This document shows positions 1,322 through 57,342 of a DNA stretch of 64,000 nucleotides, piece after piece. Origin of the DNA: Burkholderiales bacterium (lineage in GTDB: Bacteria; Pseudomonadota; Gammaproteobacteria; Burkholderiales; SG8-41); assembly GCA_036555615.1 (NCBI GenBank), contig DATBKZ010000048.1, positions 2,526-66,525 on the forward strand, in the 5' to 3' direction. The notes beneath the pieces were generated by a model, which saw nothing but the letters and a program-made list of their open reading frames with translations, ran no database searches and had not been told where the DNA came from. The position numbers and the translations under genes are program-made. The first letter of the stretch is position 1, and the number at the start of each line of letters is the position of its first letter.

Positions 1322-1354
1322 AGAAGAACCCCGCCGCGGCGGGGTTTCTTGTTT
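1322..1354. terminator. Bidirectional intrinsic terminator between convergent genes
   Basis: CCCCGCCG/CGGCGGGG palindrome (1329-1344), flanked by AGAAGAA upstream and TTTCTTGTTT downstream. Lies between the MBL stop (1311) and the coxE-like stop (1354). Confidence 0.7.
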
Positions 1355-2535
1355 CAGTGCGCCTTGGAGAGCAGGCGCATGCCGCGGTCGAGACCGTCCA
1401 GCGTCAAGGGAAACATCCGGTCGCCCATCAACTGACGGGTGATGCGGATCGACTCGTGATAGTCCCACACCGATTCCGGCTGCGGGTTGAGCCAGATCGC
1501 GTTCGGATAGACAGTCAACAGGCGCTGCAGCCACACCGCGCCCGCTTCCTCATTGGTGTGCTCGACGCTGCCGCCGGGATAGACGATTTCATAGGGGCTC
1601 ATGGTGGCGTCTCCCACCAGCACCACCCGGTAGTCGTGCGGATAGGTATGCAGCACGTCCCAGGTCGGCATGCGCTCCGCCGAGCGCCGCCGGTTGTCGC
1701 GCCACACCCGCTCGTAGAGATAATTGTGGAAGTAGAAGTATTCGAGGTGCTTGAACTCGGCACGCGCCGCGGAAAAGAGCTGCTCGCAGACGCGGATGTG
1801 ATCGTCCATCGAGCCCCCGACATCGAGGAACAGCAGCACCTTCACCGCGTTGTGCCGCTCGGGCACCATCTTGAGATCGAGCCAGCCCGCGTTCTTTGCC
1901 GTTGACCGGATCGTATCGTCGAGATCGAGCTCCTCCGGGGCGCCGATCCGCGCGAAGCGCCGCAGCCGGCGCAGCGCCACCTTGATGTTGCGCGTGCCGA
2001 GCTCGACCGTATCGTCGAGATTGCGGTACTCGCGCTGGTCCCAGACCTTCACCGCCCGCCGGTGGCGCGACTCCGGCTGGCCGATGCGCACCCCCTCGGG
2101 GTTGTAGCCAAAGGCGCCATACGGGCTCGTGCCGGCAGTCCCGATCCACTTGGAGCCGCCCTGGTGCCGGCCCTTCTGCTCCTCGAGCCGCTTCCGGAGC
2201 GTCTCCATGAGCTTGTCCCACCCGCCGAGCGACTCGATCAGTTTCTTCTCCTCCTCGGTCAGGACCTTCTCCGCGAGCTTCTTCAGCCATTCCTCGGGGA
2301 TCAGGATGGCGAGCGCGTCCACCTCGACGATGCCCTTGAAGTAGGCGGCGAACACGCGGTCGTAGCGGTCGTAGTACTTCTCGTCCTTCACCAGGCAGGC
2401 GCGGGCAAGCCAGTAGAACTCCTCCATGCTGCCGAATGCGACGCGCTTTGCCAGGGCCTCGATGAGCGTCAGGAACTCCTTGACCGAGACCGGGACGCCG
2501 CCCGCTTTGAGCTTCAGGAAGAATTCGATCAGCAT
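1354..2535 (-). CDS. VWA domain protein, CoxE-like
   Basis: N-terminus MLIEFFLKLKAGGVPVSVKEFLTLIEAL is typical of the CoxE family. MIDAS-type LLFLDVGGSMD. Its ATG abuts the stop of the upstream MoxR ATPase (0-nt gap). Confidence 0.85.
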   Translation of the reverse strand: MLIEFFLKLKAGGVPVSVKEFLTLIEALAKRVAFGSMEEFYWLARACLVKDEKYYDRYDRVFAAYFKGIVEVDALAILIPEEWLKKLAEKVLTEEEKKLIESLGGWDKLMETLRKRLEEQKGRHQGGSKWIGTAGTSPYGAFGYNPEGVRIGQPESRHRRAVKVWDQREYRNLDDTVELGTRNIKVALRRLRRFARIGAPEELDLDDTIRSTAKNAGWLDLKMVPERHNAVKVLLFLDVGGSMDDHIRVCEQLFSAARAEFKHLEYFYFHNYLYERVWRDNRRRSAERMPTWDVLHTYPHDYRVVLVGDATMSPYEIVYPGGSVEHTNEEAGAVWLQRLLTVYPNAIWLNPQPESVWDYHESIRITRQLMGDRMFPLTLDGLDRGMRLLSKAH

Positions 2536-3384
2536 CTAGGTTGTCTTGCGCCGCGACATGAAGACCAGCCGCTCGAAGAGGTGCACGTCCTGCTCGTTCT
2601 TGAGCAGCGCCCCGTGCAGTGGCGGGATGATCTTGTGGGTGTCCTGGCTGTGCAGCGCCTCGGGCGGGATGTCCTCCGCCATGAGCAGCTTCAGCCAGTC
2701 GAGGAGCTCGGAGGTCGAGGGCTTCTTCTTCAGCCCCGGCACCTCGCGCATCTCGAAGAACGCACCGAGCGCCTCGCGCAGAAGCTGCTTCTTGATGTCC
2801 GGATGATGCACGCGGACGATGCGCTCCATCGTGTCGTGGTCGGGAAAGCGGATGTAGTGGAAGAAGCAGCGGCGCAGGAACGCGTCCGGCAGCTCCTTCT
2901 CGTTGTTGCTGGTAATTACCACCAGCGGCCGGTGCGTCGCCCTGACCAGCTCCTGCGTCTCGTAGACGTAGAACTCCATGCGGTCGAGCTCGCGCAGAAG
3001 ATCGTTCGGGAACTCGATGTCGGCCTTGTCCACCTCGTCGATCAGCAGCACCGCGGGCGCGTCGGAAACGAAGGCGCTCCACAGCATGCCGCGCACGATG
3101 TAATTGCGGATGTCGTGCACCCGCGCATCGCCCAGCTGCGAGTCGCGCAGCCGCGACACCGCGTCGTACTCGTAGAGACCGTGCTGGGCCTTGGTGGTGG
3201 ACTTGATGTGCCACTCGAAGAGCGGCCGCCCGATCGCCCGGGCGATCTCGATCGCCAGCATGGTCTTGCCGGTGCCGGGCTCGCCCTTCACCAGCAGCGG
3301 GCGCTCGAGCGTGAGGGCGGCGTTGACCGCCATCATCAGGTCATCGGTCGCGATATAGGTATCGGTGCCCTCGAATCGCTTCAT
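2536..3384 (-). CDS. MoxR-family AAA+ ATPase, CoxD-like
   Basis: Walker A GEPGTGKT, Walker B LLIDEVDK. Size of 282 aa and pairing with a CoxE-like VWA gene fit the family. Confidence 0.9.
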   Translation of the reverse strand: MKRFEGTDTYIATDDLMMAVNAALTLERPLLVKGEPGTGKTMLAIEIARAIGRPLFEWHIKSTTKAQHGLYEYDAVSRLRDSQLGDARVHDIRNYIVRGMLWSAFVSDAPAVLLIDEVDKADIEFPNDLLRELDRMEFYVYETQELVRATHRPLVVITSNNEKELPDAFLRRCFFHYIRFPDHDTMERIVRVHHPDIKKQLLREALGAFFEMREVPGLKKKPSTSELLDWLKLLMAEDIPPEALHSQDTHKIIPPLHGALLKNEQDVHLFERLVFMSRRKTT

Positions 3385-3411
3385 TTCATTTCACCGTTCA
3401 CGAGCCATATC

Positions 3412-3465
3412 TCCCTCATCCCTCATCCCTCATCCCTCATCCCTCATCCCTCATCCCTCATCCCT
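3412..3465. repeat. Perfect heptanucleotide tandem repeat (CCCTCAT)x7 plus a partial unit; (GGGATGA)n on the minus strand
   Basis: Units at 3413-3419, 3420-3426, 3427-3433, 3434-3440, 3441-3447, 3448-3454 and 3455-3461, then CCCT. Lies in the 117-nt spacer between the MFS stop (3502) and the coxD-like ATG (3384). Confidence 0.97.
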
Positions 3466-3501
3466 GCTTTCAGTCGAGTCTCGCACCCGCCCCCTCGACC
3501 G

Positions 3502-4683
3502 TCAAGAAACGCTCGGCCTTCGCCGCAGCAACAACAGGAGCAGGGCCAGAACGGAAAACACGGCGCCGGCGTAGAAGGTGACCGAGGCGCCGAGCTCGTC
3601 CCACAGCAGGCCGGCGAGAACGCTCGCGATCAGCATCGCAACGCCGCTCACCAGGTTGAAGAAGCCGAATGCTGTGCCCCGCAAATGCGCAGGTGCGGCG
3701 CCGGCGACCATGGCCGCGAGCAGGCCCTGCGTCATCCCCATGTGCAATCCCCACAGGGCCACGCCCGCCCCGACTGCAGCGAGCCCTCCTGCCATCGCGA
3801 GCACGATGTCGGCGAGAACCAGCAACGCAAGTCCAGCGGCGAGCAGCTTCTCGTGGCTGATGCGGTCGGCAAGGCGGCCCGCCGGATAGGCCGACGCCGC
3901 GTAGACGACGTTCATGATCACCAGCACGAGCGGCGCAAAGCTCGCGGCAAGCCCGAGCTGCTGCGCCCGCAGGATGAGGAAGGCTTCGCTGAAGCGGGCG
4001 AGTGTGAATATGCCGCCCGCGGCGACGATCCACCAATAGGCGCTGCTGAACTCGCTCAAGCTCCGCCAGTGCACCGGAGAGGTCGGGCGGACGCGCACTG
4101 TCTCGGAAGGTGGCTCCCGCACGCCGAACAGCAGGATAAGCACGGACAGCACTGCGGGTATGACGGCAAACCAGAACACCGCGCGAAAGTCCCCTGCCCA
4201 TAGCACCATGAGACCGATCGCGAGCAGCGGCCCGACGAACGCGCCGGCGGTATCGAGCGACTGGCGGAGTCCGTATGCCGCGCCCCGAATTTCCGGCGGC
4301 GTCAAGTCGGCGATCAGCGCGTCGCGCGGCGCCCCGCGTATGCCCTTGCCGATGCGGTCCATGAAGCGCGCAACGAACACCCAGTGCACGGCGAGCGCGA
4401 GCGCGAAGAGCGGCTTGGAAAGGGCGCCCAGGCCGTAGCCGAGAACCGTGAGGCCCTTGCGCCTGCCGAGCCAGTCGCTGATCGTCCCCGAGAACACGCG
4501 CACGATCAGGGCGGTCGCCTCTGCCACGCCTTCGACGACGCCGATCATCAGCGCGGTTGCGCCGAGACTCACGACCATGAATACCGGCAGCAGGCTGTGG
4601 ATCAGCTCGGAGGACACATCCATGAACAGGCTGACGAACCCCAGCATCCACACGCCGCGTGGAATTTCGGTGGAGGCGCGCAC
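3502..4683 (-). CDS. MFS transporter
   Basis: Multi-TM sequence. The conserved N-terminal stretch IPRGVWMLGFVSLFMDVSSELIHSLLPVF requires a start upstream of the ATG at 4647. GTG at 4683 is the only in-frame candidate after the upstream stop at 4692. Confidence 0.8.
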   Translation of the reverse strand: MRASTEIPRGVWMLGFVSLFMDVSSELIHSLLPVFMVVSLGATALMIGVVEGVAEATALIVRVFSGTISDWLGRRKGLTVLGYGLGALSKPLFALALAVHWVFVARFMDRIGKGIRGAPRDALIADLTPPEIRGAAYGLRQSLDTAGAFVGPLLAIGLMVLWAGDFRAVFWFAVIPAVLSVLILLFGVREPPSETVRVRPTSPVHWRSLSEFSSAYWWIVAAGGIFTLARFSEAFLILRAQQLGLAASFAPLVLVIMNVVYAASAYPAGRLADRISHEKLLAAGLALLVLADIVLAMAGGLAAVGAGVALWGLHMGMTQGLLAAMVAGAAPAHLRGTAFGFFNLVSGVAMLIASVLAGLLWDELGASVTFYAGAVFSVLALLLLLLRRRPSVS

Positions 4684-4691
4684 AGGTGGCT

Positions 4692-5273
4692 TCAACCTGC
4701 GAGATCGGTCTTGCGATCGATGTCGACGAGGATTCCCGGATCGTCGCACTCGACGAGCTGAACCGCGTCGCGGTGGCGCTCCAGCAGGGCGCGTGCGCCC
4801 TGGTCGCCGTCGAGCGCAAGCAACTCTTCGCGCAGCGGGGCGCCGAATCCGACGGGATGGCCGCGTTCTCCCTTGTAAGCCGGCGCGGCGATCAGTGCTC
4901 CCTGTTGCAGCGCTGAGATGACGGACTTGACGGTCGCGGGCTGGATCCGCGGCATGTCCGCGAGCGCAACTACCCAGCCGTCCGCCCCGCGCGCCTGGGC
5001 CACGCCGTGCGCAAGACTCGCCCCCATGCCCCGCTCCGCCCCCTGGAACATTGTGACCTGGCAACCCTCCTGCTCCAGCATGTCATAGAGCGGGAAATCG
5101 CCCCAGCGCACCACCGCTATCACGTCCGGGGTCGCCGCGAGGAGGTTGCGCGCGGCGTGCGCTGCGATCGCCACCCCGTCGTCCAAAGGGTGCAGGAGCT
5201 TCTCGCCGCCGAACCGCGTCCCAGCTCCGGCAGCCAGAAGGATCGCGGCAATGACTTTCTGCCCGGCCGCCAT
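4692..5273 (-). CDS. MobA/MocA-like nucleotidyltransferase (molybdenum cofactor cytidylyl/guanylyl-transferase family)
   Basis: N-terminal AAILLAAGAGTRFGGEKLL nucleotide-binding loop, ~190 aa. Divergent from the Moco enzyme genes. Confidence 0.8.
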   Translation of the reverse strand: MAAGQKVIAAILLAAGAGTRFGGEKLLHPLDDGVAIAAHAARNLLAATPDVIAVVRWGDFPLYDMLEQEGCQVTMFQGAERGMGASLAHGVAQARGADGWVVALADMPRIQPATVKSVISALQQGALIAAPAYKGERGHPVGFGAPLREELLALDGDQGARALLERHRDAVQLVECDDPGILVDIDRKTDLAG

Positions 5274-5398: not shown

Positions 5399-5460
5399 AC
5401 AATGGACGGCAGAAATGGAGTATCAACCATTTCCGAAGGATTCGATTGGAGGAGATCGCC

Positions 5461-5928
5461 ATGACACAAAAGTTCAGTCTTGTCGTCGACGGCAAGACGG
5501 CAACCGTTGATGCCGACCCCGCAATGCCCCTGCTCTACGCGCTCCATGCGGAGCTCGGCCTCAACAATCCCAAGTTCGGCTGCGGCAAGGCCCAGTGCGG
5601 TGCCTGCACCGTGCACCTCGATGGCGCCCCGGTGCGCTCGTGCGTCATGCCGGTGAGCGCCGCCGCAGGCAAGCGCATCACCACGCTTGCCGGGCTGGGG
5701 ACGCCTGATAGTCCACATCCGCTGCAGACAGCCTACATTGCCGAGCAGGTGCCGCAATGCGGCTACTGCCTGTCGGGCTGGATCATGACCGCGGCAGCGT
5801 TGCTCAAGAACCATCCGAAGCCGAGTGATGCCGAGATCCGGGAGGCCATGGCCGGCATCAAGTGCCGTTGCGGCACGCATATGGCGATCATGCGCGCGAT
5901 CAAGCGCGCGGCGCAGGCGATGGCGTAG
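5461..5928 (+). CDS. (2Fe-2S)-binding small subunit of IorAB/aldehyde-oxidase-type molybdo-hydroxylase
   Basis: ATG at 5461 follows GGAGGAG. Cluster motifs GCGKAQCGACTV and QCGYCLSGWIM. Confidence 0.9.
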   Translation: MTQKFSLVVDGKTATVDADPAMPLLYALHAELGLNNPKFGCGKAQCGACTVHLDGAPVRSCVMPVSAAAGKRITTLAGLGTPDSPHPLQTAYIAEQVPQCGYCLSGWIMTAAALLKNHPKPSDAEIREAMAGIKCRCGTHMAIMRAIKRAAQAMA

Positions 5929-5937
5929 GAGGCTACG

Positions 5938-8217
5938 ATGAATCCAGTGACCCGTCGCGATTTTCTCAAGGCCGCCGGCTCGCTCGTCGTGAGCATCACG
6001 ATTCCCGGCGCCGTATCCAGTGCACTCGGCCAGGGCATATCGTCTGTCGCCACGCTCGGCGGCAAGCCCCCGCTGGTGCCCGACCAGCTCGATTCGTGGA
6101 TCGCGATTCTGTCCGATGGCAGCGTCACCGCCTTCTTTGGCAAGATGGATATGGGCCAGGGCGTGGACGTCGCGATCGCGCAGATCGTGGCGGAGGAGCT
6201 CGACGTCGCCTTCGAAAAAGTGAACGTCGTCATGGGCGACACCGCCTTTACCTGCAACCAGGGCGGCGCCTCCGGCAGCACCGGCATCCAGAGAGGCGGC
6301 GTAACCCTGCGTAATGCCGCAGCGGAAGCCCGCCGCATCCTGCTCGAGCGCGCATCGAAAAGGCTCGAGGTCCCGGTCGATCAGCTCGTCGTGGAGGACG
6401 GCGTGGTCCGGGATCCCCGCTACGGATTGGCGAGCGTGAGCTACGGCGAGCTGGTCGGCGGCCAGCACCTCCACCACAAGCTCGAGTGGAACAAGCGTTA
6501 CGGCAACGCGCTTGCCCTCAAGGTGCGGGCGCAACCGAAGGACCCCTCGCAGCACAAGATCGTCGGTAGGTCGTTCCCGCAGAAGATCGTCGCCGAGAAG
6601 GTGTACGGGCGCGCTGAGTTCATCACCGACGTCAAGATCGAGGGGATGCTGCACGGGCGGATCGTCCGGCCGCCCAATGCAGGCTGCTCGCCGGTGTCCG
6701 TCGACGAGGGCTCGATCCGGAGTATTCCGGGCGCACGCGTTGTGCGCGAGAAGGACTTTCTCGCGGTGGTGGCCGAGCGCGAGTGGGATGCGGTACGCGC
6801 AGCCGAAACCCTCAAGGTCACCTGGACGCCGCAGTGCGCGCCCTACCCGCCCATGGAAAAGCTCCACCAGCACATCCGCGAAGCGAAACCCAACGGAAAG
6901 GGAATGCCGGTTAATCGGGGCGACGTGGAGGCGGCGCTGAAAGGCGCGAGCCGCATCGTGCAGGCGGAGTACGAGTGGCCGCTGCAGTCGCATGCGAGCA
7001 TGGGTCCCGCGTGCGCGATTGCCGACGTGAGGAAGGGCGAGGCGCGGCTGTGGACCGGCACGCAGAAACCCCACTTCGCGCGCGACGGGGTGGCAAGGAT
7101 CGCGGGGATTCCGGTCGACAAGGTGCGCGCGACGTGGGTCATGGGTCCGGGATCCTACGGCCGCAATGACGCTGGTGATGCGGCACATGACGCCGCGCTG
7201 CTGTCGAAGCTGACCGGCCGGCCGGTGCGCGTCCAGTACATGCGGCACGAAGGCACGGGCTGGGATCCCAAGGGTCCCGCCGCCGTATTCCGCGGCAAGG
7301 CCGGCCTCGATGCGGCGGGCAACGTCGTGGCCTACGAGTTCTACGGAAAAGGATTCACGCGCCAGGAAGTGGCGACCAACGAGTCCAACCCCAAGGACAC
7401 GCTCGCCGGGCAGCTGACCGGCTGGAAGCCCAAAGCCAACATCATCTTCCAGCACCCGGCGGAAGTGTACGGATTCGAGAACAAGCGCTGCTGGTGGGAG
7501 ACGATTCCGACGCTGCTCGAGCGCGGGTCGCCGCTGCGCGTGAGCCACCTGCGCGACCCCCTCGGACCGGAGCTTCATTTCGCCAGCGAGTCATTCATCG
7601 ATGAAGTCGCGCTGGCGGCAGGTGCCGACCCGGTCGCGTTCCGGCTGCGCCATCTCGCGCACGATGCGCGTCATTCGGCGGTCGTGAAGGCGGCCGCGGA
7701 GAAGGCGCGATGGAAGGCCCGACCCAATCCCAACCGCGGCCGGGGCGACGTCATGACCGGACGCGGCATCTCCTACACGGAGCGGAACGGCACCATCGTC
7801 GCCATGATTGCTGAGGTCGAAGTGGACCGCCGCAGCGGACGCGTGTGGGCGAAGAAATTCACTGTCGCGCACGATTGCGGGCAGATCATCAATCCGGAGG
7901 GGCTCAAGCTCACCATCGAGGGCAATATCGTGATGGCACTCTCGCGCACGCTCTTCGAGGAAGTGCTCTTCACGCAAAACAACGTCGCGAGCGTAGACTG
8001 GGCGACCTACCCGATCCTGGAGATGGCCGACGCTCCGGAAGCGATCGACATCGCGCTCATCAACCGGCCCGAGATGGCGCCGCAGGGCGCCGGCGAGCCG
8101 TCGACGCGCACGGTGCCGGCGGCGGTAGCGAACGCGATCTTCGACGCAACCGGCGTGCGCGTGCGCAAGGTGCCGATCACGCCGGAGCGCATGAAGGCCG
8201 CTCTCGCCCGCGCCTAG
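5938..8217 (+). CDS. Molybdopterin-binding large subunit, xanthine dehydrogenase/IorB family, Tat-exported
   Basis: Twin-arginine signal MNPVTRRDFLKAAGSLVV. 759 aa. Follows the 2Fe-2S subunit by 9 nt, with a TAGGAGG RBS. Confidence 0.9.
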   Translation: MNPVTRRDFLKAAGSLVVSITIPGAVSSALGQGISSVATLGGKPPLVPDQLDSWIAILSDGSVTAFFGKMDMGQGVDVAIAQIVAEELDVAFEKVNVVMGDTAFTCNQGGASGSTGIQRGGVTLRNAAAEARRILLERASKRLEVPVDQLVVEDGVVRDPRYGLASVSYGELVGGQHLHHKLEWNKRYGNALALKVRAQPKDPSQHKIVGRSFPQKIVAEKVYGRAEFITDVKIEGMLHGRIVRPPNAGCSPVSVDEGSIRSIPGARVVREKDFLAVVAEREWDAVRAAETLKVTWTPQCAPYPPMEKLHQHIREAKPNGKGMPVNRGDVEAALKGASRIVQAEYEWPLQSHASMGPACAIADVRKGEARLWTGTQKPHFARDGVARIAGIPVDKVRATWVMGPGSYGRNDAGDAAHDAALLSKLTGRPVRVQYMRHEGTGWDPKGPAAVFRGKAGLDAAGNVVAYEFYGKGFTRQEVATNESNPKDTLAGQLTGWKPKANIIFQHPAEVYGFENKRCWWETIPTLLERGSPLRVSHLRDPLGPELHFASESFIDEVALAAGADPVAFRLRHLAHDARHSAVVKAAAEKARWKARPNPNRGRGDVMTGRGISYTERNGTIVAMIAEVEVDRRSGRVWAKKFTVAHDCGQIINPEGLKLTIEGNIVMALSRTLFEEVLFTQNNVASVDWATYPILEMADAPEAIDIALINRPEMAPQGAGEPSTRTVPAAVANAIFDATGVRVRKVPITPERMKAALARA

Positions 8218-8278: not shown

Positions 8279-9061
8279 ATGCCCCGCTTCTGCGCCAACC
8301 TGACGATGCTCTGGAACGAGCTCGACTTCATGGACCGCTTTGGCGCCGCGGCGAAGGCGGGATTCCGGGGGGTCGAATACCTCTTTCCCTATGAGCATGA
8401 CAAGGCACGCATCGCCGCCGAATTGAAGAAGCACGGGCTCGTCCAGGTCCTGCACAACCTGCCTGCGGGCAACTGGGCGAAGGGCGAGCGCGGCATCGGC
8501 TGCCACCCCGACCGCATGAAGGAATTCCAGGCCGGCGTCGCGACGGCGATCGAGTACGCGACGGCGCTCGGATGCGGGCAGTTGAACTGCCTTGCCGGGA
8601 TCCGCCCGCGCAACACCGACCCGAACGACGCGCGCGAGACGTTCATCAAGAACCTCCAGTATGCCGCGCCCCGCTTGAAGGACGCCGGGATCAGGCTCCT
8701 GATCGAGCCGATCAACACTCGCGACATCCCCGGCTTCTTCCTGTGCTACTCGAAGCAGGCGCTCGACATCATCACGGCGGTCGGCTCGGACAACCTGTTC
8801 CTGCAATTCGATCTCTATCACGCGCAGGTCATGGAAGGCGACCTGGCGCGCACGATCGAGACCAACCAGGATCGGATCCCGCACGTGCAAATCGCCGACA
8901 ACCCCGGGCGCAATGAACCCGGCACCGGCGAGATCAATTACCCCTTCCTGTTCGGTCAAATGGATCGTCTCGGCTACTCCGGCTGGGTTGGCTGCGAATA
9001 CAAGCCGAAGACGACGACCGAAGCGGGGCTCGGGTGGATCAAGCCCTACCTCAAGCACTGA
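8279..9061 (+). CDS. hyi: Hydroxypyruvate isomerase
   Basis: Near-colinear with my remembered E. coli Hyi sequence: NLPAGNWAKGERGIGC, LLIEPINTRDIPGFF, HVQIADNPGRNEPGTGEINY, GWVGCEYKPKTTTEAGLGW. Confidence 0.9.
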   Translation: MPRFCANLTMLWNELDFMDRFGAAAKAGFRGVEYLFPYEHDKARIAAELKKHGLVQVLHNLPAGNWAKGERGIGCHPDRMKEFQAGVATAIEYATALGCGQLNCLAGIRPRNTDPNDARETFIKNLQYAAPRLKDAGIRLLIEPINTRDIPGFFLCYSKQALDIITAVGSDNLFLQFDLYHAQVMEGDLARTIETNQDRIPHVQIADNPGRNEPGTGEINYPFLFGQMDRLGYSGWVGCEYKPKTTTEAGLGWIKPYLKH

Positions 9062-16346: not shown

Positions 16347-17609
16347 GTGCAGACGAGCCTCGCACCATTCATCAGGGACACGCCGGAAGGACGGGAGGCC
16401 GACTCGATCCTGCGCAAGTGCACGCATTGCGGAATGTGCACGGCCACCTGCCCGACCTATCAGCTCCTCAACGACGAGCTCGACAGCCCGCGCGGGCGCA
16501 TCTACCTTATCAAGCAGGTGCTCGAGGGCGCAACGCCTACGGCAAGGACGCAATTGCACCTCGACCGCTGTCTCACCTGCCGCGCGTGCGAGACCACCTG
16601 CCCGACCGGCGTGCGCTACGGGCGGCTCGTGGACATCGGCCGGCACCTCGTAGAGGAGCGCGTCGCGCGCGGTCCGCTCGCATCCGCATGGCGTGGCGCG
16701 CTCGATACCGTGATCTCCAGCGCGTCCCTGTTCGGGCCGATGCTCAAGATCGGGCAGCTGGCGCGCCCGCTCTTGCCTTCCGCGCTTAAGCGCAAAGTGC
16801 CGCCAGCGGCCGCGCCGGCCGGCGCGTGGCCCGCGACGGTGCACGCGCGCAGGATGCTCGTGCTCGAGGGTTGCGTGCAGCCGAGCCTCTCGCCCGCGAC
16901 CAACGCCGCGGCGGCACGTGTGCTCGACCGGCTCGGCATATCGCTCGTGCGCGCCGCCGGCGCCGGATGTTGCGGCGGCGTGTCATTTCACCTCAACAAG
17001 CAGGAAAAAGCGCTCGACGTCATGCGCCGAACGATCGACGCGTGGTGGCCGAATATCGAGCAGGGCGTGGAGGCGATCGTGATTGCCGCCAGCGGCTGCG
17101 GCGTGACGGTGAAGGAATACGGGCACTACCTGGCGCAGGACCCCGCCTACGCTGCCAAGGCCAAGCGCGTCTCCGAGCTCGCGAGAGACATCAGCGAGGT
17201 AATCATCGCCGGGAAGGACAAGCTGCGCTCCCTCATCCCCCAGCCCTCATCCCTCAGCCCTCGTCAGCGAATAGCCTTCCACAGTCCTTGCACCCTGCAG
17301 CACGGCATGAAATTGCGGGGCAACGTGGAGAACCTGTTGCGCGACTTGGGCTATTCGCTGACGGATGTGCCGGACGCCCACCTGTGCTGCGGCTCAGCCG
17401 GCACCTATTCGATCCTCCAGCCGGAGCTGTCGCAACGCCTGCTCGCAAACAAAATTGCGTCCCTGGAAAGCGGCGCGCCTGTGGCCATCCTCACCGCCAA
17501 CATCGGCTGCCAAGTGCATCTCCAAGCGGCGACCGCGCTGCCGGTCAGGCACTGGATCGAGGCGTTGGAGCACACCCTGGACCGGGCCAGTTCTGGTACT
17601 TTACGCTAA
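16347..17609 (+). CDS. glcF: Glycolate oxidase iron-sulfur subunit GlcF
   Basis: Two ferredoxin-type motifs (CTHCGMCTATCP, CLTCRACETTCP) and two CCG cysteine-rich motifs (GCCGG, HLCCGSAG). Confidence 0.9.
   Translation: MQTSLAPFIRDTPEGREADSILRKCTHCGMCTATCPTYQLLNDELDSPRGRIYLIKQVLEGATPTARTQLHLDRCLTCRACETTCPTGVRYGRLVDIGRHLVEERVARGPLASAWRGALDTVISSASLFGPMLKIGQLARPLLPSALKRKVPPAAAPAGAWPATVHARRMLVLEGCVQPSLSPATNAAAARVLDRLGISLVRAAGAGCCGGVSFHLNKQEKALDVMRRTIDAWWPNIEQGVEAIVIAASGCGVTVKEYGHYLAQDPAYAAKAKRVSELARDISEVIIAGKDKLRSLIPQPSSLSPRQRIAFHSPCTLQHGMKLRGNVENLLRDLGYSLTDVPDAHLCCGSAGTYSILQPELSQRLLANKIASLESGAPVAILTANIGCQVHLQAATALPVRHWIEALEHTLDRASSGTLR
17230..17264. repeat. Degenerate heptamer array (CCCTCAT CCCCCAG CCCTCAT CCCTCAG CCCTCGT) inside the glcF coding sequence
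   Basis: Five 7-nt units related to the perfect array at 3413-3461. Translated in frame as SLIPQPSSLSPR, between the two CCG motifs of GlcF. Confidence 0.8.
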
Positions 17610-33325: not shown

Positions 33326-33343
33326 CCTGCAAGGAGGAAGGAT

Positions 33344-33404
33344 GAAGTCAGAAGGATGGCCCGCGCTTCGCCAGGTCTGCCTTCTGACTTCCGCCTTCTG
33401 ACTT
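33344..33404. repeat. Inverted plus direct 11-12 nt repeat (GAAGTCAGAAGG / CCTTCTGACTTC / CCTTCTGACTT)
   Basis: 33344-33355 is the reverse complement of 33380-33391 (12-bp stem, 24-nt loop). A third, direct copy at 33394-33404 overlaps the GNAT stop codon. Confidence 0.85.
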
Positions 33405-33945
33405 AGGACCTTCCCTCGTCCTTCATCCTCGAGCCGGTATCGCCGCTGGTCACGCTCCGTGGCGGGACCCGCCGGATGTCGCGCGCCATCTTCACCGCCG
33501 TCTCGACGCCGCGGTAGTAGCCCGGAATATAGGAGGTCTCCTTGTAGCCCCGCATGCGATAGAAGGTGCGCGCGGCGAAATTGTTGGAGCGCAGCTCGAG
33601 GTTTATCGTGGCGATGCCGGCCGTGAGCGCCGCCTCCTCCAGCCACGCCATCATCTGCGTGCCGATCCCGCAGCGCTGGTGCGAGGGCTTTACCGCGAGC
33701 AGCGACAGATGCGCGGTGGTGTCGTCGAAATCCATGATCGCGAACCCGACGAGGTGCTGACTGACGTCCGCCGCCAGCACGTTCGTGTCGCGCGCGCGGA
33801 TCGCCTTCGCCACCCGCTCCGGCGGCCAGGTCCAGCCGCGCAGCCCGACCTCGATCAGGTAGCGCGACATCACTGCGATTTCGTAAGCATCTGCGGGGGC
33901 GGCCAATCTGATCTTCGGGGTGGGCATAGGCACAACTATACCCAA
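33403..33945 (-). CDS. GNAT-family N-acetyltransferase
   Basis: Acetyl-CoA motif HQRCGIGTQMMAWLEEAA; NNFAARTFYRMRGY. Start at M1 or M7. Confidence 0.8.
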   Translation of the reverse strand: MGIVVPMPTPKIRLAAPADAYEIAVMSRYLIEVGLRGWTWPPERVAKAIRARDTNVLAADVSQHLVGFAIMDFDDTTAHLSLLAVKPSHQRCGIGTQMMAWLEEAALTAGIATINLELRSNNFAARTFYRMRGYKETSYIPGYYRGVETAVKMARDIRRVPPRSVTSGDTGSRMKDEGRS

Positions 33946-51977: not shown

Positions 51978-53557
51978 GCGAGGCCGCTGGCGCACGCAGC
52001 CTGTGGCTCGGCAGCCTGCGTCCGGCCCGGGAACGACTCAGTACGGCAATGGCCGCCCTCATCCGCGCACGGCGCCTGCAGGTGCTCGTGGACAATGGTT
52101 TCGGCGGCCTGCTGGTGGGACTCGGCCTGGCCACGTTCGCGGTGCTGGTGGCCCGGCTGGTGCCCCTGCCCTATTCGCCGTGGCAGCTCGGGGCTGCGTT
52201 GGTGATCACCGCTGTGGCGCTTGCGCTGCTCGTGGGCTGGCGGCGGCGCCCCGATTCCCTCGAGGTTGCCATCCGTGCGGACCTGGCGCTCAAGCTCAAG
52301 CAGCGTCTGAGCACGGCGTGGGAAATCATGACCGTTCGCGGCGATTCCGAGCTGGCCGAGCGGCTTTCCGTGCAGGCGGTCAAGGCGGGGCTGCCGACCC
52401 ACCCCGGGCGGCTGTTTCCGTTGCGGGTGAACCGCTGGGGGCGTCTGGCGCCGCTGGCGGCGATAGCGCTGCTCCTCGCGAGCGCGGTCGATCTCGGCTG
52501 GATGCAAGCGCCGGCGCCGCGCGAAGTCGATGAGCAAGTGGTGAGAGAGGGCCAGCGCCTCGGCGCGTTCGGACGCGCGATGCAGGAACGAGCGCGGCGC
52601 GACCGGCTGCCACGCAGCGCCAGGCAGGCCCAACAGCTCGAGCGCCTGGGAGCGCATATGGAGAGCGGCGCGCTCGCCCGGGGCGAGGCCCTCGGGCAAC
52701 TGCGCGGGATGAGGGATGCGCTTGACGAGGAACGGATGCAGGCGCTGGCTGAGGCAAACCAGACCGATATTGGCCCGTTGCGCGGGGAGGGCTCGCCGCT
52801 CGCCTCGGATCCGGACACGCGGGCAGCGCTCGAGTCCATCCAGCGCTGGACCCCGGATAGCGCCGACACCCGCGCCCTGGCGAAGCAGCTTGCTGATCTC
52901 GAGCGCTCGGGTGTCCCGCAGCGCGACCTGGAGGACGCACTGAGGCGCCAACTGCCGGAAGACAATGAGGGACTGAGGGAGATGCTCGAAAAACTGGCGC
53001 AAGTCGACCGCGCGCGCAGGGAGGACAGAGAATTGCAGAGCGCGCGCGAGCAGGTGCGTCTGGCGCTGGAGAATCTGGGCGAGCCCGGTTCCGGGACGGA
53101 CGGCGGACGCAGCCCGGGAGTCGACCTCGACTTTGATGAGGAGGACGATCGCGGCGGCAAGAGCGCCGCGGACGCGGCGGCCGACGGACGCCGGCGCACC
53201 GAGATGGCTCGTGGCGCCACGGGAGCCGATTCGCCGGGCGATTCCAGCGGCGCCCCGAAACGGCAGCACGCGCCGGCTGGCCCGGATTCGAGGGACACGG
53301 GGCCGGTCCTGAAGCCGGAGGGCCAGGCGCGCGAGGGCGAGGTGTTCGTGACCGAGGCACGCATCCATCCGAGGACGGCTCGACCGAGTGTGGAGAACGT
53401 AGCGATGAGCAGCGAGTATGCGTCACAGGTGGAGGATGTGCTCTCCAGGGAAGAGTACCCGGCCCATTACAAGGAGTTCGTCCGCAGGTATTTCCTGACA
53501 CTCAGCCGGGGCCGCGTCCCGCAACAGCAGCCAACTGACACACGAGGAGCAAAGTGA
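51974..53557 (+). CDS. Uncharacterised membrane-anchored low-complexity/coiled-coil protein (gene C, DUF4175-like)
   Basis: ATG at 51974. Three N-terminal TM helices, then about 350 aa rich in R/E/D/A/Q/L. C-terminal EEYPAHYKEFVRRYFLTL. Confidence 0.65.
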   Translation: MSEAAGARSLWLGSLRPARERLSTAMAALIRARRLQVLVDNGFGGLLVGLGLATFAVLVARLVPLPYSPWQLGAALVITAVALALLVGWRRRPDSLEVAIRADLALKLKQRLSTAWEIMTVRGDSELAERLSVQAVKAGLPTHPGRLFPLRVNRWGRLAPLAAIALLLASAVDLGWMQAPAPREVDEQVVREGQRLGAFGRAMQERARRDRLPRSARQAQQLERLGAHMESGALARGEALGQLRGMRDALDEERMQALAEANQTDIGPLRGEGSPLASDPDTRAALESIQRWTPDSADTRALAKQLADLERSGVPQRDLEDALRRQLPEDNEGLREMLEKLAQVDRARREDRELQSAREQVRLALENLGEPGSGTDGGRSPGVDLDFDEEDDRGGKSAADAAADGRRRTEMARGATGADSPGDSSGAPKRQHAPAGPDSRDTGPVLKPEGQAREGEVFVTEARIHPRTARPSVENVAMSSEYASQVEDVLSREEYPAHYKEFVRRYFLTLSRGRVPQQQPTDTRGAK

Positions 53558-54555
53558 GTGACGAAGCACGTCTCGCGCTCGCGCACGAGCGGCTGGACGC
53601 GCTGAGGCGCCAGATCGAGCGGCGAATCGTCGGACATCAAGAGCTGATCAACGGCATACTCGCCTGCCTGCTCTCGTCCGGCCACGCTCTGCTGGAAGGC
53701 GTGCCGGGTCTGGGCAAGACGCTGCTGGTCAAGACCCTGAGCGATGCGCTGCACCTGGAATTTTCCCGCATCCAGTTCACCCCGGACCTGATGCCCGCAG
53801 ACATCATCGGCACCCAGGTGGTGCTGCAGGATGACGAGGGCCGCCGGCACTTCCAGTTCCAGCCGGGCCCCGTGTTCACACAGCTCCTGCTCGCCGACGA
53901 GATCAACCGCGCGACGCCGAAGACCCAGTCCGCGCTGCTGGAAGCGATGGAGGAGAAGCGCGTCACCGTCGGGCGCACCGGGCATGCGCTGCAGGAGCCA
54001 TTCATGGTGCTCGCGACGCAGAACCCCATCGAGATGGAAGGCACCTATCCCCTGCCCGAGGCCCAGCTCGATCGCTTCCTGCTGAAGCTCAAAGCCACCT
54101 TTCCCGACGCCGGTGAGCTCTCCGCGATCGTCGATCGCACGACGGGCGCGCCCATGCCGGCGGTCGACCCGGTGCTGGACGCCGGGGAACTCCTGGATTT
54201 GAGGGAGCTCACGCGCTCTGTGGTAATCGCCAATCACGTGAAGGACTACGCGATCCGCATGGTGCTCGCCACCCACGCCGCGAACGGGCGCGCGACGCCA
54301 ATGGTTCGCCGTTACGTGCGCCACGGCGCCAGCCCGCGCGGGCTGCTCGCCGTGGTCCTCACTGCCAAGGCCCTGGCGCTTTTCGCCGGACGCATCAACG
54401 TGAGCTTCGATGACCTCGCAGCCGCCGCGCCGCCGGCGTTGCGGCACCGCATCCTGCTCAACTTCGAGGGCGAGGCGGAAGGGATCGACGTGGAAGACCT
54501 GATCGCGGAAGTCGTCCGCGAAACGCCGACTGTGCCCGGGGAGGCGCGCGCCTGA
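53554..54555 (+). CDS. MoxR-family AAA+ ATPase
   Basis: GTG start overlapping the upstream TGA, RBS GAGGAG. Walker A GVPGLGKT, Walker B LLADEINR; ATQNPIEMEGTYPLPEAQLDRF. Confidence 0.92.
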   Translation: MSDEARLALAHERLDALRRQIERRIVGHQELINGILACLLSSGHALLEGVPGLGKTLLVKTLSDALHLEFSRIQFTPDLMPADIIGTQVVLQDDEGRRHFQFQPGPVFTQLLLADEINRATPKTQSALLEAMEEKRVTVGRTGHALQEPFMVLATQNPIEMEGTYPLPEAQLDRFLLKLKATFPDAGELSAIVDRTTGAPMPAVDPVLDAGELLDLRELTRSVVIANHVKDYAIRMVLATHAANGRATPMVRRYVRHGASPRGLLAVVLTAKALALFAGRINVSFDDLAAAAPPALRHRILLNFEGEAEGIDVEDLIAEVVRETPTVPGEARA

Positions 54556-54571
54556 GCCGGAGCCGGTAGCC

Positions 54572-55486
54572 ATGGCGATGAATCCGCTCGAGGCATCCGT
54601 CGCCGGCGGCGATCTCGTCTTCGACGACGAGTTCCTGCGCAAGCTGGAGCAGCTCGAGCTGCTCGCGCGCAAGATCTTCCGGGGCCTGCTGCGCGGGGAG
54701 CACACGACGTCGCGCCGTGGGCGAGGGCTCGAATTCTCCGACTTCCGGCACTACCGGCCTGGCGACGACTTCCGGCACATCGACTGGAACATCTACTCTC
54801 GGCTGGATCAGCTCTTCCTCAAGCTGCACGCCTCAGAGGACGATGTGACGCTGCATCTCATCCTGGACGCGAGCGCGAGCATGGGCTGCGGCGAACCGTC
54901 GAAATTCGATCACGCGCGGCGACTGGCCGCGGCGCTGGCCTACATCGCGCTGCACCATCTCGATCGCGTCGGCGTGAGCGCCTTCTCAGAGGGGCTGGGA
55001 GCGGCCCTGCCCCCCATCAAGACGCGGCACCACATGGCCCGCCTGCTCGCCTTCCTCGGCGAGCTGTCCTGCGCCGGGATGACCCGTTTCGACTCGGCCC
55101 TGCGTGCCTTCGCAATGCGTACGCGAAACCCGGGATTGGTGATCCTGATCTCCGACCTGCTCGGCGCCGGGAACATCCAGGATGGCATAGAGGCTCTGCG
55201 TCACGGCGGACACGACGTGGTAGTGATCCAGCTGCTCGCGGAGTCGGAGATCGACCCGCCGCTCGAGGGCGCCTTGCGCATGGTCGACGTGGAGACTGGG
55301 GACGAGCTGGAAGCGACCGTCGACGATGATCTGCGCAGGCTCTACCAGAATCGGCTCGAGCGCTACTTGCAGGACGTGGAGCGCTTCTGCCGACAGCTTA
55401 GCGTGGAATACCTGCGTGCCAGCACGGCCATCCCGTTCGAGGACGTCGTCCTCAAGTACCTGCGCCAGGGGGTGCACCTGCGGTGA
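54572..55486 (+). CDS. DUF58 domain protein
   Basis: RGLEFSDFRHYRPGDDFRHIDWNIYSR signature, followed by a degenerate VWA-like LILDASASMG. Confidence 0.88.
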   Translation: MAMNPLEASVAGGDLVFDDEFLRKLEQLELLARKIFRGLLRGEHTTSRRGRGLEFSDFRHYRPGDDFRHIDWNIYSRLDQLFLKLHASEDDVTLHLILDASASMGCGEPSKFDHARRLAAALAYIALHHLDRVGVSAFSEGLGAALPPIKTRHHMARLLAFLGELSCAGMTRFDSALRAFAMRTRNPGLVILISDLLGAGNIQDGIEALRHGGHDVVVIQLLAESEIDPPLEGALRMVDVETGDELEATVDDDLRRLYQNRLERYLQDVERFCRQLSVEYLRASTAIPFEDVVLKYLRQGVHLR

Positions 55487-57342
55487 TCGAGCTTGCCTAC
55501 CCCCTGGCCCTGCTGTCGCTCTTGGCCATTCCGCTTCTAATCGCGCTTCACCTGCTGCGGCCAAGGCGCCGCCGGATAGTGCTGTCCACGACCACACTGT
55601 GGCAGGCAGCGCTGAGGGAGCGCGAGCCGCGCGTCGGGCTTCGCACGCTGCTCAGGAACCTGAGCCTCTTGCTGCTGCTGGCGAGCGCGCTGGCGCTCGG
55701 GCTCGCGCTCGCCGGACCGCAGTGGCTGATCCGCGCGAGCGAGGGTGCCGATTCCGTGCTCGTGCTCGACGTGAGCGCGAGCATGAAGTCGCGATCCGGC
55801 ATCGGGAAGACGCGCTTTGACCTGGCCCTTGCGGAGGCGGCCAAGATCGTCGACGGCCTGCCCCGGCAGGGGCGCATGCTGGTGATGACCAGCGGGCGCA
55901 AGGCTCTGCTGCGCACGGGCTTCGAGGCCGACCGCGAGCTGCTCCGCCGGGCGCTGGCGCAAATTCGGCCCGGCGACGAGGCGGGGCGGCCGCGCGAAGC
56001 ATTGGCGTTGGCGCAGTCGCTGCTTCGAGGCCGTGACCAGGGCCGCATCTACTTCCTGACCGATGGCGCCCTCGATCGCGAGGTCGATCCCGGCTCGCCG
56101 CAGGTGGTGTTCCGCGTCGTGGGCGGGCCCGCGCGAAACGTCGCCATCACCCGCTTCGATTTCCGCCAGGAGTTCGCAGCCGAGGATCGTTTTCAGGTGC
56201 TGATGACCGTGCGCAACTACACCGACGCGCCTGTGGTTGTGCCTGCTTCGGCAAGCCTCGATGACCATGTGCTCTTCAGGCGGTCTCTCGCGCTCGCAGC
56301 GCGCGCGGAAGAGACCCTGGTTCTTCCGTTCACCGGCCGAGCCCGTGGGCAGGCGACAGGTCGCATCGAAGTGGAAGACGATCTCGCGGCCGATAACCAG
56401 GCCTTTGCGGCGGTTGATGCGAACGATCCGCTGCGTGTGCTGCTCTTCTCCCGGGGCAACTTCTATCTGGAGAGCGTGCTTCGGGCCATGCCCAACCTGG
56501 ACCTCGTCAAGGGCAATTCGCCGCCCGCCGAGGATATCGCGCGGATCGCCCGGAGCTACGACGTGGTGGTGATCGATAGCATCGCGGCGCCGCAGCTGCC
56601 GAGCGGGAATTTCCTGCTCGTGAATACCGTGGCGCCGGGCCTGCCGTTCTCCGACTCGGGGCGGCTCGTTCAGCCGGGCCCGCTCGTCCGCGGACCGAGC
56701 GCGCTGATGGGTGACGCGGACCTCACCGCGGTGCGGATCGAACAAGCCCGGCGGGTCATCATCGACAGAGCGGTTCCCGGGCTGCAGCGCCTGTTCTGGT
56801 CGAAGGAAACGGACCTGGCGCTCGCGCTGCTCGATGACGGCCGGAAACTGGTTTATCTAGGCTTCGATCTCGACCGGTCCAACTTCCCGCTGCAGGCGGC
56901 ATTCCCGCTGTTCGTCAGCCGCAGCCTGGAGTGGCTCCGTCCGCGAGGTGACGGCTTCGTGCCCACCCATGTAGAGGCCGGTTCAACCGGGACGATCGCG
57001 CTCCCCGCGGGCGAGACGCGGGTGACCGTGCGCATGCCGTCCGGCAAATCCGAGACGCTGGCGTCGGAGGGCGGCTCGGCTCTGTTCGACGCCACCACCG
57101 ATGCCGGCATCTATCAATACACCGTTGGCGACGTAACGCGATACTTCGCGGTAAGCCTTGCCGACGCGCGGGAATCCGACGTCAACAACCGCTGGGCGCC
57201 TGCCGGGCGCCGCGAGGACATTCGACCGGCGCGCACCTCCGCGCAGGCGCTCGCTCCGCTCTGGCCTCAGCTGCTGGCGCTGGCGCTCCTCCTGCTGGTG
57301 CTGGAGTGGTTCGTGTGGACCGGGAGCCGGGGGAATGCCTGA
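55483..57342 (+). CDS. BatA-N-terminal-domain + VWA protein
   Basis: GTG overlapping the upstream stop. N-terminal double-TM LALLSLLAIPLLIALHLLRPRRRRIVLSTTTLW. MIDAS VLVLDVSASM. C-terminal TM helix. Confidence 0.85.
   Translation: MIELAYPLALLSLLAIPLLIALHLLRPRRRRIVLSTTTLWQAALREREPRVGLRTLLRNLSLLLLLASALALGLALAGPQWLIRASEGADSVLVLDVSASMKSRSGIGKTRFDLALAEAAKIVDGLPRQGRMLVMTSGRKALLRTGFEADRELLRRALAQIRPGDEAGRPREALALAQSLLRGRDQGRIYFLTDGALDREVDPGSPQVVFRVVGGPARNVAITRFDFRQEFAAEDRFQVLMTVRNYTDAPVVVPASASLDDHVLFRRSLALAARAEETLVLPFTGRARGQATGRIEVEDDLAADNQAFAAVDANDPLRVLLFSRGNFYLESVLRAMPNLDLVKGNSPPAEDIARIARSYDVVVIDSIAAPQLPSGNFLLVNTVAPGLPFSDSGRLVQPGPLVRGPSALMGDADLTAVRIEQARRVIIDRAVPGLQRLFWSKETDLALALLDDGRKLVYLGFDLDRSNFPLQAAFPLFVSRSLEWLRPRGDGFVPTHVEAGSTGTIALPAGETRVTVRMPSGKSETLASEGGSALFDATTDAGIYQYTVGDVTRYFAVSLADARESDVNNRWAPAGRREDIRPARTSAQALAPLWPQLLALALLLLVLEWFVWTGSRGNA

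Follow-up and report, generated by a model that had tools for sequence, protein, structure and literature searches.

Gene neighborhood of the coxD-like locus

The window, that is the whole 64-kb stretch of DNA that was analyzed, comes from an uncultured soil/water Burkholderiales bacterium. On its minus strand lies a gene for a CoxD-like MoxR-family AAA+ ATPase of 282 amino acids (2536..3384; Pfam AAA_5/AAA), whose product is identical to HEY7656596.1. Its stop codon abuts the start of a gene for a CoxE-like VWA protein of 393 amino acids (VWA_CoxE; 1354..2535, minus strand). Upstream of coxD, and on the same strand, is a gene for an MFS transporter of 393 amino acids (3502..4683; stop codon TGA at 3504-3502), and a MobA/MocA-like NTP transferase gene (4692..5273, minus strand) is the first gene of this same-strand accessory cluster. 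Divergent from the cluster, the plus strand at 5446..8217 carries the genes for the [2Fe-2S] small and the Mo-binding large subunit of a xanthine-dehydrogenase-family molybdenum hydroxylase, the presumed client of CoxD and CoxE. Both the CoxD-like protein and the GlcF of the window (identical to HEY7656609.1) are recorded under 'MAG TPA: Burkholderiales bacterium', and CoxD homologs at 92-96% identity are plentiful in Burkholderiales MAGs and metagenomes.

Far from this cluster, a change in the sign of the GC skew at ~50-52 kb was considered as a replication origin and dropped; the change coincides with a switch in gene strand, and no origin-related features were identified around 50-52 kb, where several ORFs have no Pfam match. 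Just past the skew change, at ~53.5-60 kb, lies a MoxR/BatA/VWA cluster.

A perfect heptanucleotide array precedes coxD

Between the MFS gene and coxD, TRF reports a perfect period-7 tandem repeat at 3412..3465 (7.7 copies, 100% matches, score 108), in agreement with our direct reading of the sequence. On the plus strand, seven exact CCCTCAT units at 3413-3461 are followed by CCCT. On the minus strand, which is the sense strand of coxD, the array reads (GGGATGA)7GGG, with eight GGG tracts and ATGA between them, and 28 nt separate its last G (3413) from the coxD-like ATG (3384). An earlier, sequence-only reading of this DNA had described the same seven units plus a partial one, placed between the MFS stop codon and the coxD-like ATG at 3384 with a gap of 28 nt; array and gene context alike are as it described them.

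Chance does not account for the array: a search for 14-mers with up to two mismatches returned 12 matches compared to 0.52 +/- 0.64 in 100 dinucleotide-preserving shuffles, none of which (0/100) reached 12. Because TGA occurs in all three sense frames, the array cannot be coding, and it lies outside any sense-strand ORF, 3' of a putative -10 element and not in the -35/-10 spacer. An antisense ORF that crosses the array (3365-3574, plus strand) was rejected as a gene, as its frame and length differ between alleles. The 352-amino-acid 'extended CoxD' P0001 is internally duplicated or chimeric, and its extra length is not a longer N-terminus that runs through the repeat.

Within the 64-kb window, the CCCTCAT unit forms one other tract, a degenerate and coding one in glcF. 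Arrays of (CCCTCAT)4 or longer are found in at least 120 stretches in reference genomes of many phyla, their hosts including Planctomycetota, Acidobacteriota, Bacteroidota and Betaproteobacteria, with dozens in two Coleofasciculaceae cyanobacterial MAGs; the source genome of the window is not among them. Some of these arrays lie beside ORF starts, in either orientation, and others within ORFs, where the C-rich orientation is the one seen; a crude analysis of their ORF context, which covered this one heptamer, gave no usable directional signal. A search of the literature for a named repeat of the CCCTCAT unit found nothing relevant.

Unit number varies on a clonal background

An exact look-up showed that the identical CoxD protein is encoded on eight JGI metagenome contigs. 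In 8/8 of them the flanks of the array are identical to those of the window (45 nt before and 50 nt after), and the arrays contain 7, 5, 4, 9, 6, 4, 6 and 4 units; the window has 7. A ninth record, which holds no DNA, gives a spacer of 96 nt between the MFS gene and coxD, implying 4 units. Together with the window, the ten contigs or gene tables of this population have 4, 4, 4, 4, 5, 6, 6, 7, 7 and 9 units, as counted in metagenome consensus assemblies and not in single-molecule reads. The repeat-number heterogeneity that the sequence-only reading had proposed looking for is therefore present, with 4, 5, 6, 7 or 9 units among contigs that share the same CoxD and the same flanks.

Four of these contigs (L003, L004, L007 and L008) show 0 SNPs compared to the window over 5.7, 6.1, 4.0 and 3.5 kb, respectively, yet they contain 4, 9, 6 and 4 units, so that gain and loss of whole units far outpaces point mutation. 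Sample series Ga03760xx includes alleles of 4, 7 and 9 units, and series Ga05010xx alleles of 4, 4, 5, 6 and 6. A further contig, the k-mer-based Logan contig L169, is broken inside the array. As an internal control we used the degenerate CCCTCAT-type tract in glcF (17229-17262), which is invariant: GlcF is identical on the 21 same-population contigs that we found through a homology search and a cluster listing. The array is a genuine hypermutable SSR, a slippage hotspot of a known type.

A promoter-like block lies upstream of the array

An alignment of six lineages upstream of coxD contains a conserved block with the consensus TTTCTTGACG-T..GG.G..G.TG.GAGACTCG, around which the sequence has diverged. 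In the window, its invariant columns, TTTCTTGACG-N-TGnGAGACTCG, fall at 3475..3509 on the minus strand. The block can be parsed into a putative -35 element TTGACG (3505..3500), a 17-nt spacer, an extended -10 TG (3485..3484) and a putative -10 element GAGACT (3482..3477), in which the critical A2 and T6 are retained; the stop codon of the MFS gene (3504..3502) falls within the putative -35. The block occurs once in the 64-kb window, and a metagenome scan for it returned 4 loci, among them the relatives L142 and L144. It is also kept in L161-L164, where the upstream neighbor is on the opposite strand, so that coxD there must have its own promoter. A consensus scanner applied to 3200-3700 called no promoter, and it called no terminator between the MFS gene and coxD; it is thus conservation that argues for promoter function, from which we infer that the block acts as a promoter.

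Since the block is upstream of the array, the array most likely belongs to the 5' leader of the coxD-like mRNA. If transcription starts at ~3470, a guess made from the position of the block, this leader would span 3385..3470 (minus strand), and the SSR would fill most of it. If the block is indeed the promoter, the array would form the extreme 5' end of a leader of ~86 nt. Any transcripts reading through from the MFS gene, from which no called terminator separates coxD, would carry the array as an intercistronic spacer. In front of the coxD ATG, at a distance of 6 nt, a weak Shine-Dalgarno-like GGTGA (3391..3395, minus strand) can be read. Watson-Crick folding of the leader does not exceed what chance would give (z = +0.83). 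A search against Rfam 15 returned nothing at the gathering threshold in the whole window and chance-level matches at E <= 10 in 3300-3650; a riboswitch in the leader, for example one for Moco, was rejected, as the Rfam scans gave no real match.

This position constrains what a change in unit number could do. Phase variation by SSRs places the repeat inside an ORF or between the -35 and -10 elements; the array is in neither place, which rules out an on/off frameshift or a promoter-spacing switch. Graded tuning by the leader is thereby the only effect of unit changes that is possible. The sequence-only reading had classed the array as a slipped-strand contingency repeat. That idea holds with respect to the variability of unit number on a clonal background and fails with respect to the position that on/off phase variation would need.

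Heptad arrays recur in orthologous leaders

We compared the window with relatives by scanning ten orthologous coxD leaders with TRF. Period-7 arrays are present in 6/10, all six among the eight leaders with a real spacer, and in these relatives the array ends 2-18 nt from the start codon. In the leader of L170 (CoxD 96% identical), GTGATGA GTGACGA follows right after the same GAAGCA; this two-unit proto-array, one base from GGGATGA and at the same site, argues that the array of the window arose in place by slippage and not by insertion. In L142 and L144, (ACGACTG)5 is accompanied by one degenerate unit, and L141 and L129 carry two to three degenerate ACGACTG-type units. L130, L143 and L155-L160 contain (GACGAAC)2.3 (the ACGAACG register) with no variation in 8 contigs. 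In L171, (CTGACGG CTGACAA)2.3 abuts the ATG behind a different TTGACA. The array is absent from L161-L164. L131-type and L135-type leaders (L145-L154 included) lack a spacer altogether: coxD is either overlapped by the MFS gene or abutted by just an MFS 3' remnant.

When placed in register, the heptad units share the pattern GA-Y-GA-N-N (GAUGAGG, GACGACU, GACGAAC and GAUGAGU), and no fewer than six lineages have period-7 arrays with this GAYGA core at an equivalent place in the leader. From the leaders compared, we conclude that heptad arrays have been present at this site throughout the divergence of the lineages, with different units homogenized in each. G-tracts and AUGs are missing from the arrays of close relatives (CoxD 94-96% identical); among these leaders, only those of the window's own lineage have G-tracts, AUGs and the SD-like GAGG. 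The leaders also differ in their ribosome-binding sites. The spacer-less leaders L131 and L135 have a strong Shine-Dalgarno sequence, GGAGGA or GAGGAG, whereas array-bearing relatives have no canonical one, which leads us to hypothesize that the heptads may take part in ribosome recruitment.

Each unit adds a G-tract and a mini-cistron

Every unit of the array contributes one G-tract, one SD-like GAGG, one AUG and one UGA. The G-tracts form a canonical G-quadruplex (G4) pattern, with eight G3 tracts and 4-nt ATGA loops, and G4Hunter scores average 1.52 over the array with a maximum of 1.56 in a 25-nt window. In structures predicted with ViennaRNA including G4 energies, a G4 enters the minimum free energy (MFE) structure at n >= 4 units, with one for n = 4-7 and two for n >= 8; this onset coincides with the smallest allele seen. 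The predicted energy gain is about -1 to -7 kcal/mol for n = 4-7. The canonical MFE is constant at -27.3 kcal/mol for n >= 4, suggesting that added units stay single-stranded.

A regulatory G4 would be expected to show conserved G-tracts in orthologous leaders, and those leaders do not conserve them. Because the arrays of relatives lack G-tracts, what is common to the site is the heptad array and not a quadruplex, and the G4 potential is probably a lineage-specific side effect of the unit. Thus, the G3+N1-7 motif on which the sequence-only reading had placed its emphasis is formally present, and the G4Hunter score agrees with it, but the emphasis was probably misplaced, given that close relatives have period-7 arrays without G-tracts.

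The same reading had also described the units as decoys made up of a Shine-Dalgarno-like element, a start and a stop, and these are real: the ATG of every inner unit opens a frame that reads MRDEG and then stops. The frames differ at the 3' end of the array. From the AUG of the penultimate unit, a uORF encoding MRDEGDMARER (3391..3426, minus strand) shares the reading frame of coxD and ends 6 nt short of its ATG. From the AUG of the last unit, a uORF encoding MREIWLVNGEMK (3381..3419, minus strand) ends in a stop codon that overlaps the coxD start as ATGA. As the 3' edge of the array is fixed, these terminal uORFs are the same in every allele, and copy number alters only the count of mini-cistrons and G-tracts ahead of them.

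Proposed graded tuning and its alternatives

We lean, with limited confidence, toward the view that a slipped-strand SSR, born in place in the coxD-coxE leader, tunes CoxD/CoxE output in a graded way. On this account, transcription would start ~5 nt before the array, and copy number would set the length and content of the 5' end of the mRNA. Tuning could then proceed by several routes: the mini-cistrons might load or sequester ribosomes, which would terminate and reinitiate where AUGA overlaps the coxD start; an RNA G4 at four or more units, or bound ribosomes, might act as a bulky 5' obstacle that biases initiation or slows 5'-end-dependent decay; or a G4 or R-loop might form on the non-template strand just past the start site. 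The outcome would be heritable, reversible and graded differences in CoxD/CoxE between cells, as with a rheostat rather than an on/off switch. An effect of the array on coxD/coxE expression is plausible, and the allelic variation may be either selected or merely tolerated. Several observations count against tuning. The allele range of 4-9 is broad and has no evident preferred length, as would be expected of a microsatellite under neutrality; the arrays of related lineages lack the features through which tuning is proposed to work (G-tracts, AUGs and SD-like GAGG); and the downstream genes encode metabolic maturation factors and not the surface or restriction functions usual for contingency loci.

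The alternative that we take most seriously, and to which we give an appreciable though minority chance, is that the array is a neutral by-product, a mutation-driven microsatellite at one of the rare sites that tolerate a non-triplet repeat, with no adaptive role and a negligible effect on expression. Heptanucleotides are given as the commonest class of long SSRs, and Burkholderia as among the richest genomes (Mrazek 2007, as cited in PMC4679880), and intergenic SSRs with 7-14-nt units alter on passage in B. mallei (PMC1574311). The wide allele spectrum (4-9), the lineage-to-lineage change of unit sequence, the lineages that have no array and the occurrence of CCCTCAT arrays in many phyla all fit with such neutrality. 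It accounts less readily for the persistence of GAYGA-core heptad arrays at one leader position across six or more lineages, or for the absence of a canonical Shine-Dalgarno sequence from relatives' array leaders when array-less ones have a strong one; moreover, an extra 35 nt of SD-like, AUG-containing, G-rich RNA before the ribosome-binding site would be unlikely to be silent. Neutral or not, the length variation itself could be questioned, in that short-read metagenome assembly might miscount a tandem repeat: every allele derives from assemblies, and the Logan contig L169 breaks within the array. We hold such an artefact to be highly improbable. The arrays measure 31-66 nt, a length that typical reads, and the largest k-mers used by the assemblers, should exceed; the alleles all differ by exact multiples of 7 with perfect flanks; and the five lengths recur in two independent sample series.

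The two remaining alternatives assign the array a more specific function. In one, the heptads (core GAYGA, here AGGGAUG) bind a putative RNA-binding factor or the 30S subunit and so replace or supplement the Shine-Dalgarno sequence. This agrees with the unstructured leader (z = +0.83) and with relatives whose arrays end 2-18 nt from the start codon in leaders that have no Shine-Dalgarno sequence. Further, AGGGAUG matches ARGGAUG, the core of the CsrA SELEX consensus, but GGA motifs are absent from the units of relatives. Such a role has been proposed for the TAACTGA heptamers upstream of start codons (MacGregor 2015, PMC4679880). In the window, however, 28 nt lie between the array and the ATG, and the usual Shine-Dalgarno distance is occupied by a separate GGTGA; we consider such binding unlikely, its probability overlapping with that of graded tuning. 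The other alternative, which was the main idea of the sequence-only reading, is a G4 switch, in which copy number would set the number of DNA or RNA G4s and thereby control transcription or translation of coxD/coxE. The eight G3 tracts with 4-nt loops, the G4Hunter score of 1.52, the predicted MFE G4 from n = 4 (the smallest allele) and the second one at n >= 8 speak for it, as does the location of the G-rich strand, which is both the non-template and the mRNA strand; translation in E. coli is enhanced by 5'UTR RNA G4s (PMC11087576). Against it, the orthologous arrays (ACGACTG, ACGAACG, CTGACGG/CTGACAA and GTGATGA) have no G-tracts, so that a G4 would be recent at most, and the energy gain, about -1 to -7 kcal/mol for n = 4-7, is modest. 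Taken together, a G4 switch seems very unlikely to us.

Beyond graded tuning at this one locus lies a broader and more speculative proposal, which we regard as rather doubtful: a heptad leader element (core GAYGANN) might be kept by selection before coxD-like MoxR ATPase genes in several Burkholderiales lineages as a tunable translation-initiation region, of which the hypermutable, G4-capable array of the window would be a form that provides bet-hedging, through differences between cells in their capacity for molybdenum hydroxylase maturation. If true, this would be a contingency locus for metabolism, and not for surface antigens, in a free-living environmental bacterium.

Work on host-adapted pathogens has covered hypermutable repeats well, and there they switch surface and restriction genes. 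To our knowledge, few cases are on record from natural populations of environmental bacteria or from sites before metabolic accessory genes. The locus offers a clean natural case of length polymorphism in 7-nt steps on a clonal background, visible in public metagenomes, and the comparative series of orthologous leaders (a two-unit proto-array, other units and no array), which share the promoter-like block, shows the birth and turnover of an array. The natural allelic series of 5 to 10 G-tracts would make the disputed relevance of RNA and DNA G4s in bacteria approachable. Should the array prove silent, it would still make a suitable VNTR marker with which to track strains of this lineage.

Comparison with known repeat systems

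The array is a member of the heptanucleotide long SSRs of Burkholderiales and, among the systems that we compared, is most like the leader repeats of Haemophilus influenzae hmw; in the way it would work it also resembles the AGAT leader repeats of Moraxella catarrhalis uspA2. Parallels exist for individual features. In E. coli, 5'UTR RNA G4s raise translation in a size-dependent manner, and G4s on the non-template strand raise transcription (Lee et al. 2024, PMC11087576). As in those constructs, the G3 tracts of the array precede the ribosome-binding site on the mRNA strand, and a size-dependent effect is conceivable; the E. coli G4s were engineered, whereas the G4 here is predicted and its G-tracts are not conserved.

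The TAACTGA repeats of Beggiatoaceae, Cyanobacteria and Bacteroidetes (MacGregor 2015, PMC4679880), which occur in 2-6 copies and at about 169 loci in one genome, are likewise forward direct repeats of a heptamer in 5' leaders. Every frame through them is interrupted by a stop codon, and their unit, too, is found in several phyla. The canonical Shine-Dalgarno sequence is often missing next to them, as it is in array-bearing relatives of the window, and the relative L171 even has CAACTGA-type units abutting the ATG. They differ from the array in their unit and in their many loci, compared to one known leader locus in the 64 kb analyzed here, and the array of the window stands 28 nt from the ATG and is accompanied by a separate GGTGA. 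Copy-number polymorphism, which is central here, was not the focus of that study (PMC4679880). It is a feature of the AGAT repeats in the 5' UTR of Moraxella catarrhalis uspA2, which lie between promoter and start codon, vary in copy number with the strain and, as reported in PMC4679880 from Attia and Hansen 2006, make uspA2 expression depend on the number of AGAT units. That system differs from ours in that the unit is a tetranucleotide, the product a surface protein and the host a pathogen.

The long SSRs of Burkholderia belong to the same order as the array. According to the accounts in PMC4679880 (citing Mrazek et al. 2007) and PMC1574311, units of at least 7 nt predominate among them, intergenic arrays near promoters are common, and whole-unit indels are rapid. 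That work consists of genome-wide surveys of cultured pathogens, whereas here one locus is followed across natural metagenome populations, with a position that is defined relative to the conserved promoter-like block.

The closest likeness is with H. influenzae, in which heptanucleotide SSRs, (TGAAAGA/ATCTTTC)n, upstream of hmw1A and hmw2A modulate expression (Dawid et al. 1999, as described in Power et al. 2009, PMC2651432). The hmw repeats reside in a host-adapted pathogen before an adhesin gene and are AT-rich with 13-38 copies; here, a G-rich array of 4-9 copies precedes metabolic accessory genes in an environmental MAG. The hmw effect is a graded modulation and not a frameshift on/off switch, shown there by experiment, whereas the graded effect of the coxD array is a proposed one. 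In both systems, a 7-nt unit precedes the start codon in the promoter or leader region, and its copy number is polymorphic between strains. Strains moreover differ in the unit itself at one locus (7, 8 or 9 nt in hmw), just as coxD leaders do.

A CCCTCAT-type tract within the GlcF linker

A second, degenerate CCCTCAT-type tract (17229-17262, + strand) lies inside glcF (16347-17609), where its units read CCCTCAT CCCCCAG CCCTCAT CCCTCAG CCCTCGT. The tract is in frame and falls within a linker of GlcF, which it encodes as SLIPQPSSLSP. Among homologues, GlcF proteins of 406 aa read KSL-IPRQR at this point, and those of 413-420 aa read LIPHPSSLIPRQR, the exact translation of (CCCTCAT)n. The longer linker is an in-frame expansion of 7 aa (21 nt, three units) that is common to many Burkholderiales. 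Some homologues (452-457 aa) carry an extra insert of ~39 aa at the same linker point. Within the window's own population, 21 contigs encode an identical GlcF.

Heptamer arrays and gene order around coxD in relatives

Two more heptamer arrays occur in the relative L171, both within the 150 nt upstream of coxD (L171:1051-1200). One, (CAGCCGC)x4.4, sits at the 3' end of an NTP-transferase gene, and the other, (CTGACGG CTGACAA)x2.3, abuts the coxD ATG. The relatives L131-L140 have lost the MFS gene except for a 3' remnant of ~144 nt directly upstream of coxD, and an inserted UDG-like gene separates coxD from coxE. L135 and L145 lack a leader altogether, and their MFS and coxD genes share an ATGA overlap. 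In one CoxD homologue (P0001, 352 aa), ~70 residues of the AAA+ domain are duplicated internally; either the contig is chimeric or the tandem duplication is real.

Other features of the window

At 33333-33430, an imperfect inverted repeat with arms GGATGAAGTCAGAAGG and CCTTCTGACTTC adjoins a period-7 tract (TCTGACT, 4.1 copies, 77%) as well as a CCCTCGTCCTTCAT stretch, and is a possible terminator or REP-like element. The sign of the GC skew flips at ~50-52 kb, where the gene strand also changes, and no origin-related features were identified around this point. A second MoxR (AAA_3) cluster with BatA/VWA-type proteins (53554-60100, + strand) is unrelated to the coxD cluster.

Comparison with known systems

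A CoxMSL-type enzyme would be expected to include an FAD-binding medium subunit. Instead, the gene that follows the Mo-hydroxylase large subunit encodes a xylose-isomerase-like TIM-barrel protein (AP_endonuc_2; 8279-9061, + strand). The coxD-adjacent array of L171 contains CAACTGA, which differs by one base from the TAACTGA repeats of Beggiatoaceae. The CCCTCAT unit itself recurs in the Coleofasciculaceae MAGs DALYJE01 and DALYIW01 (stretches L012, L018, L020, L023-L028 and others), which carry dozens of (CCCTCAT)n arrays per genome, many of them located at the ends of contigs. The unit acts in these cyanobacteria like a high-copy, STRR-like heptamer family.
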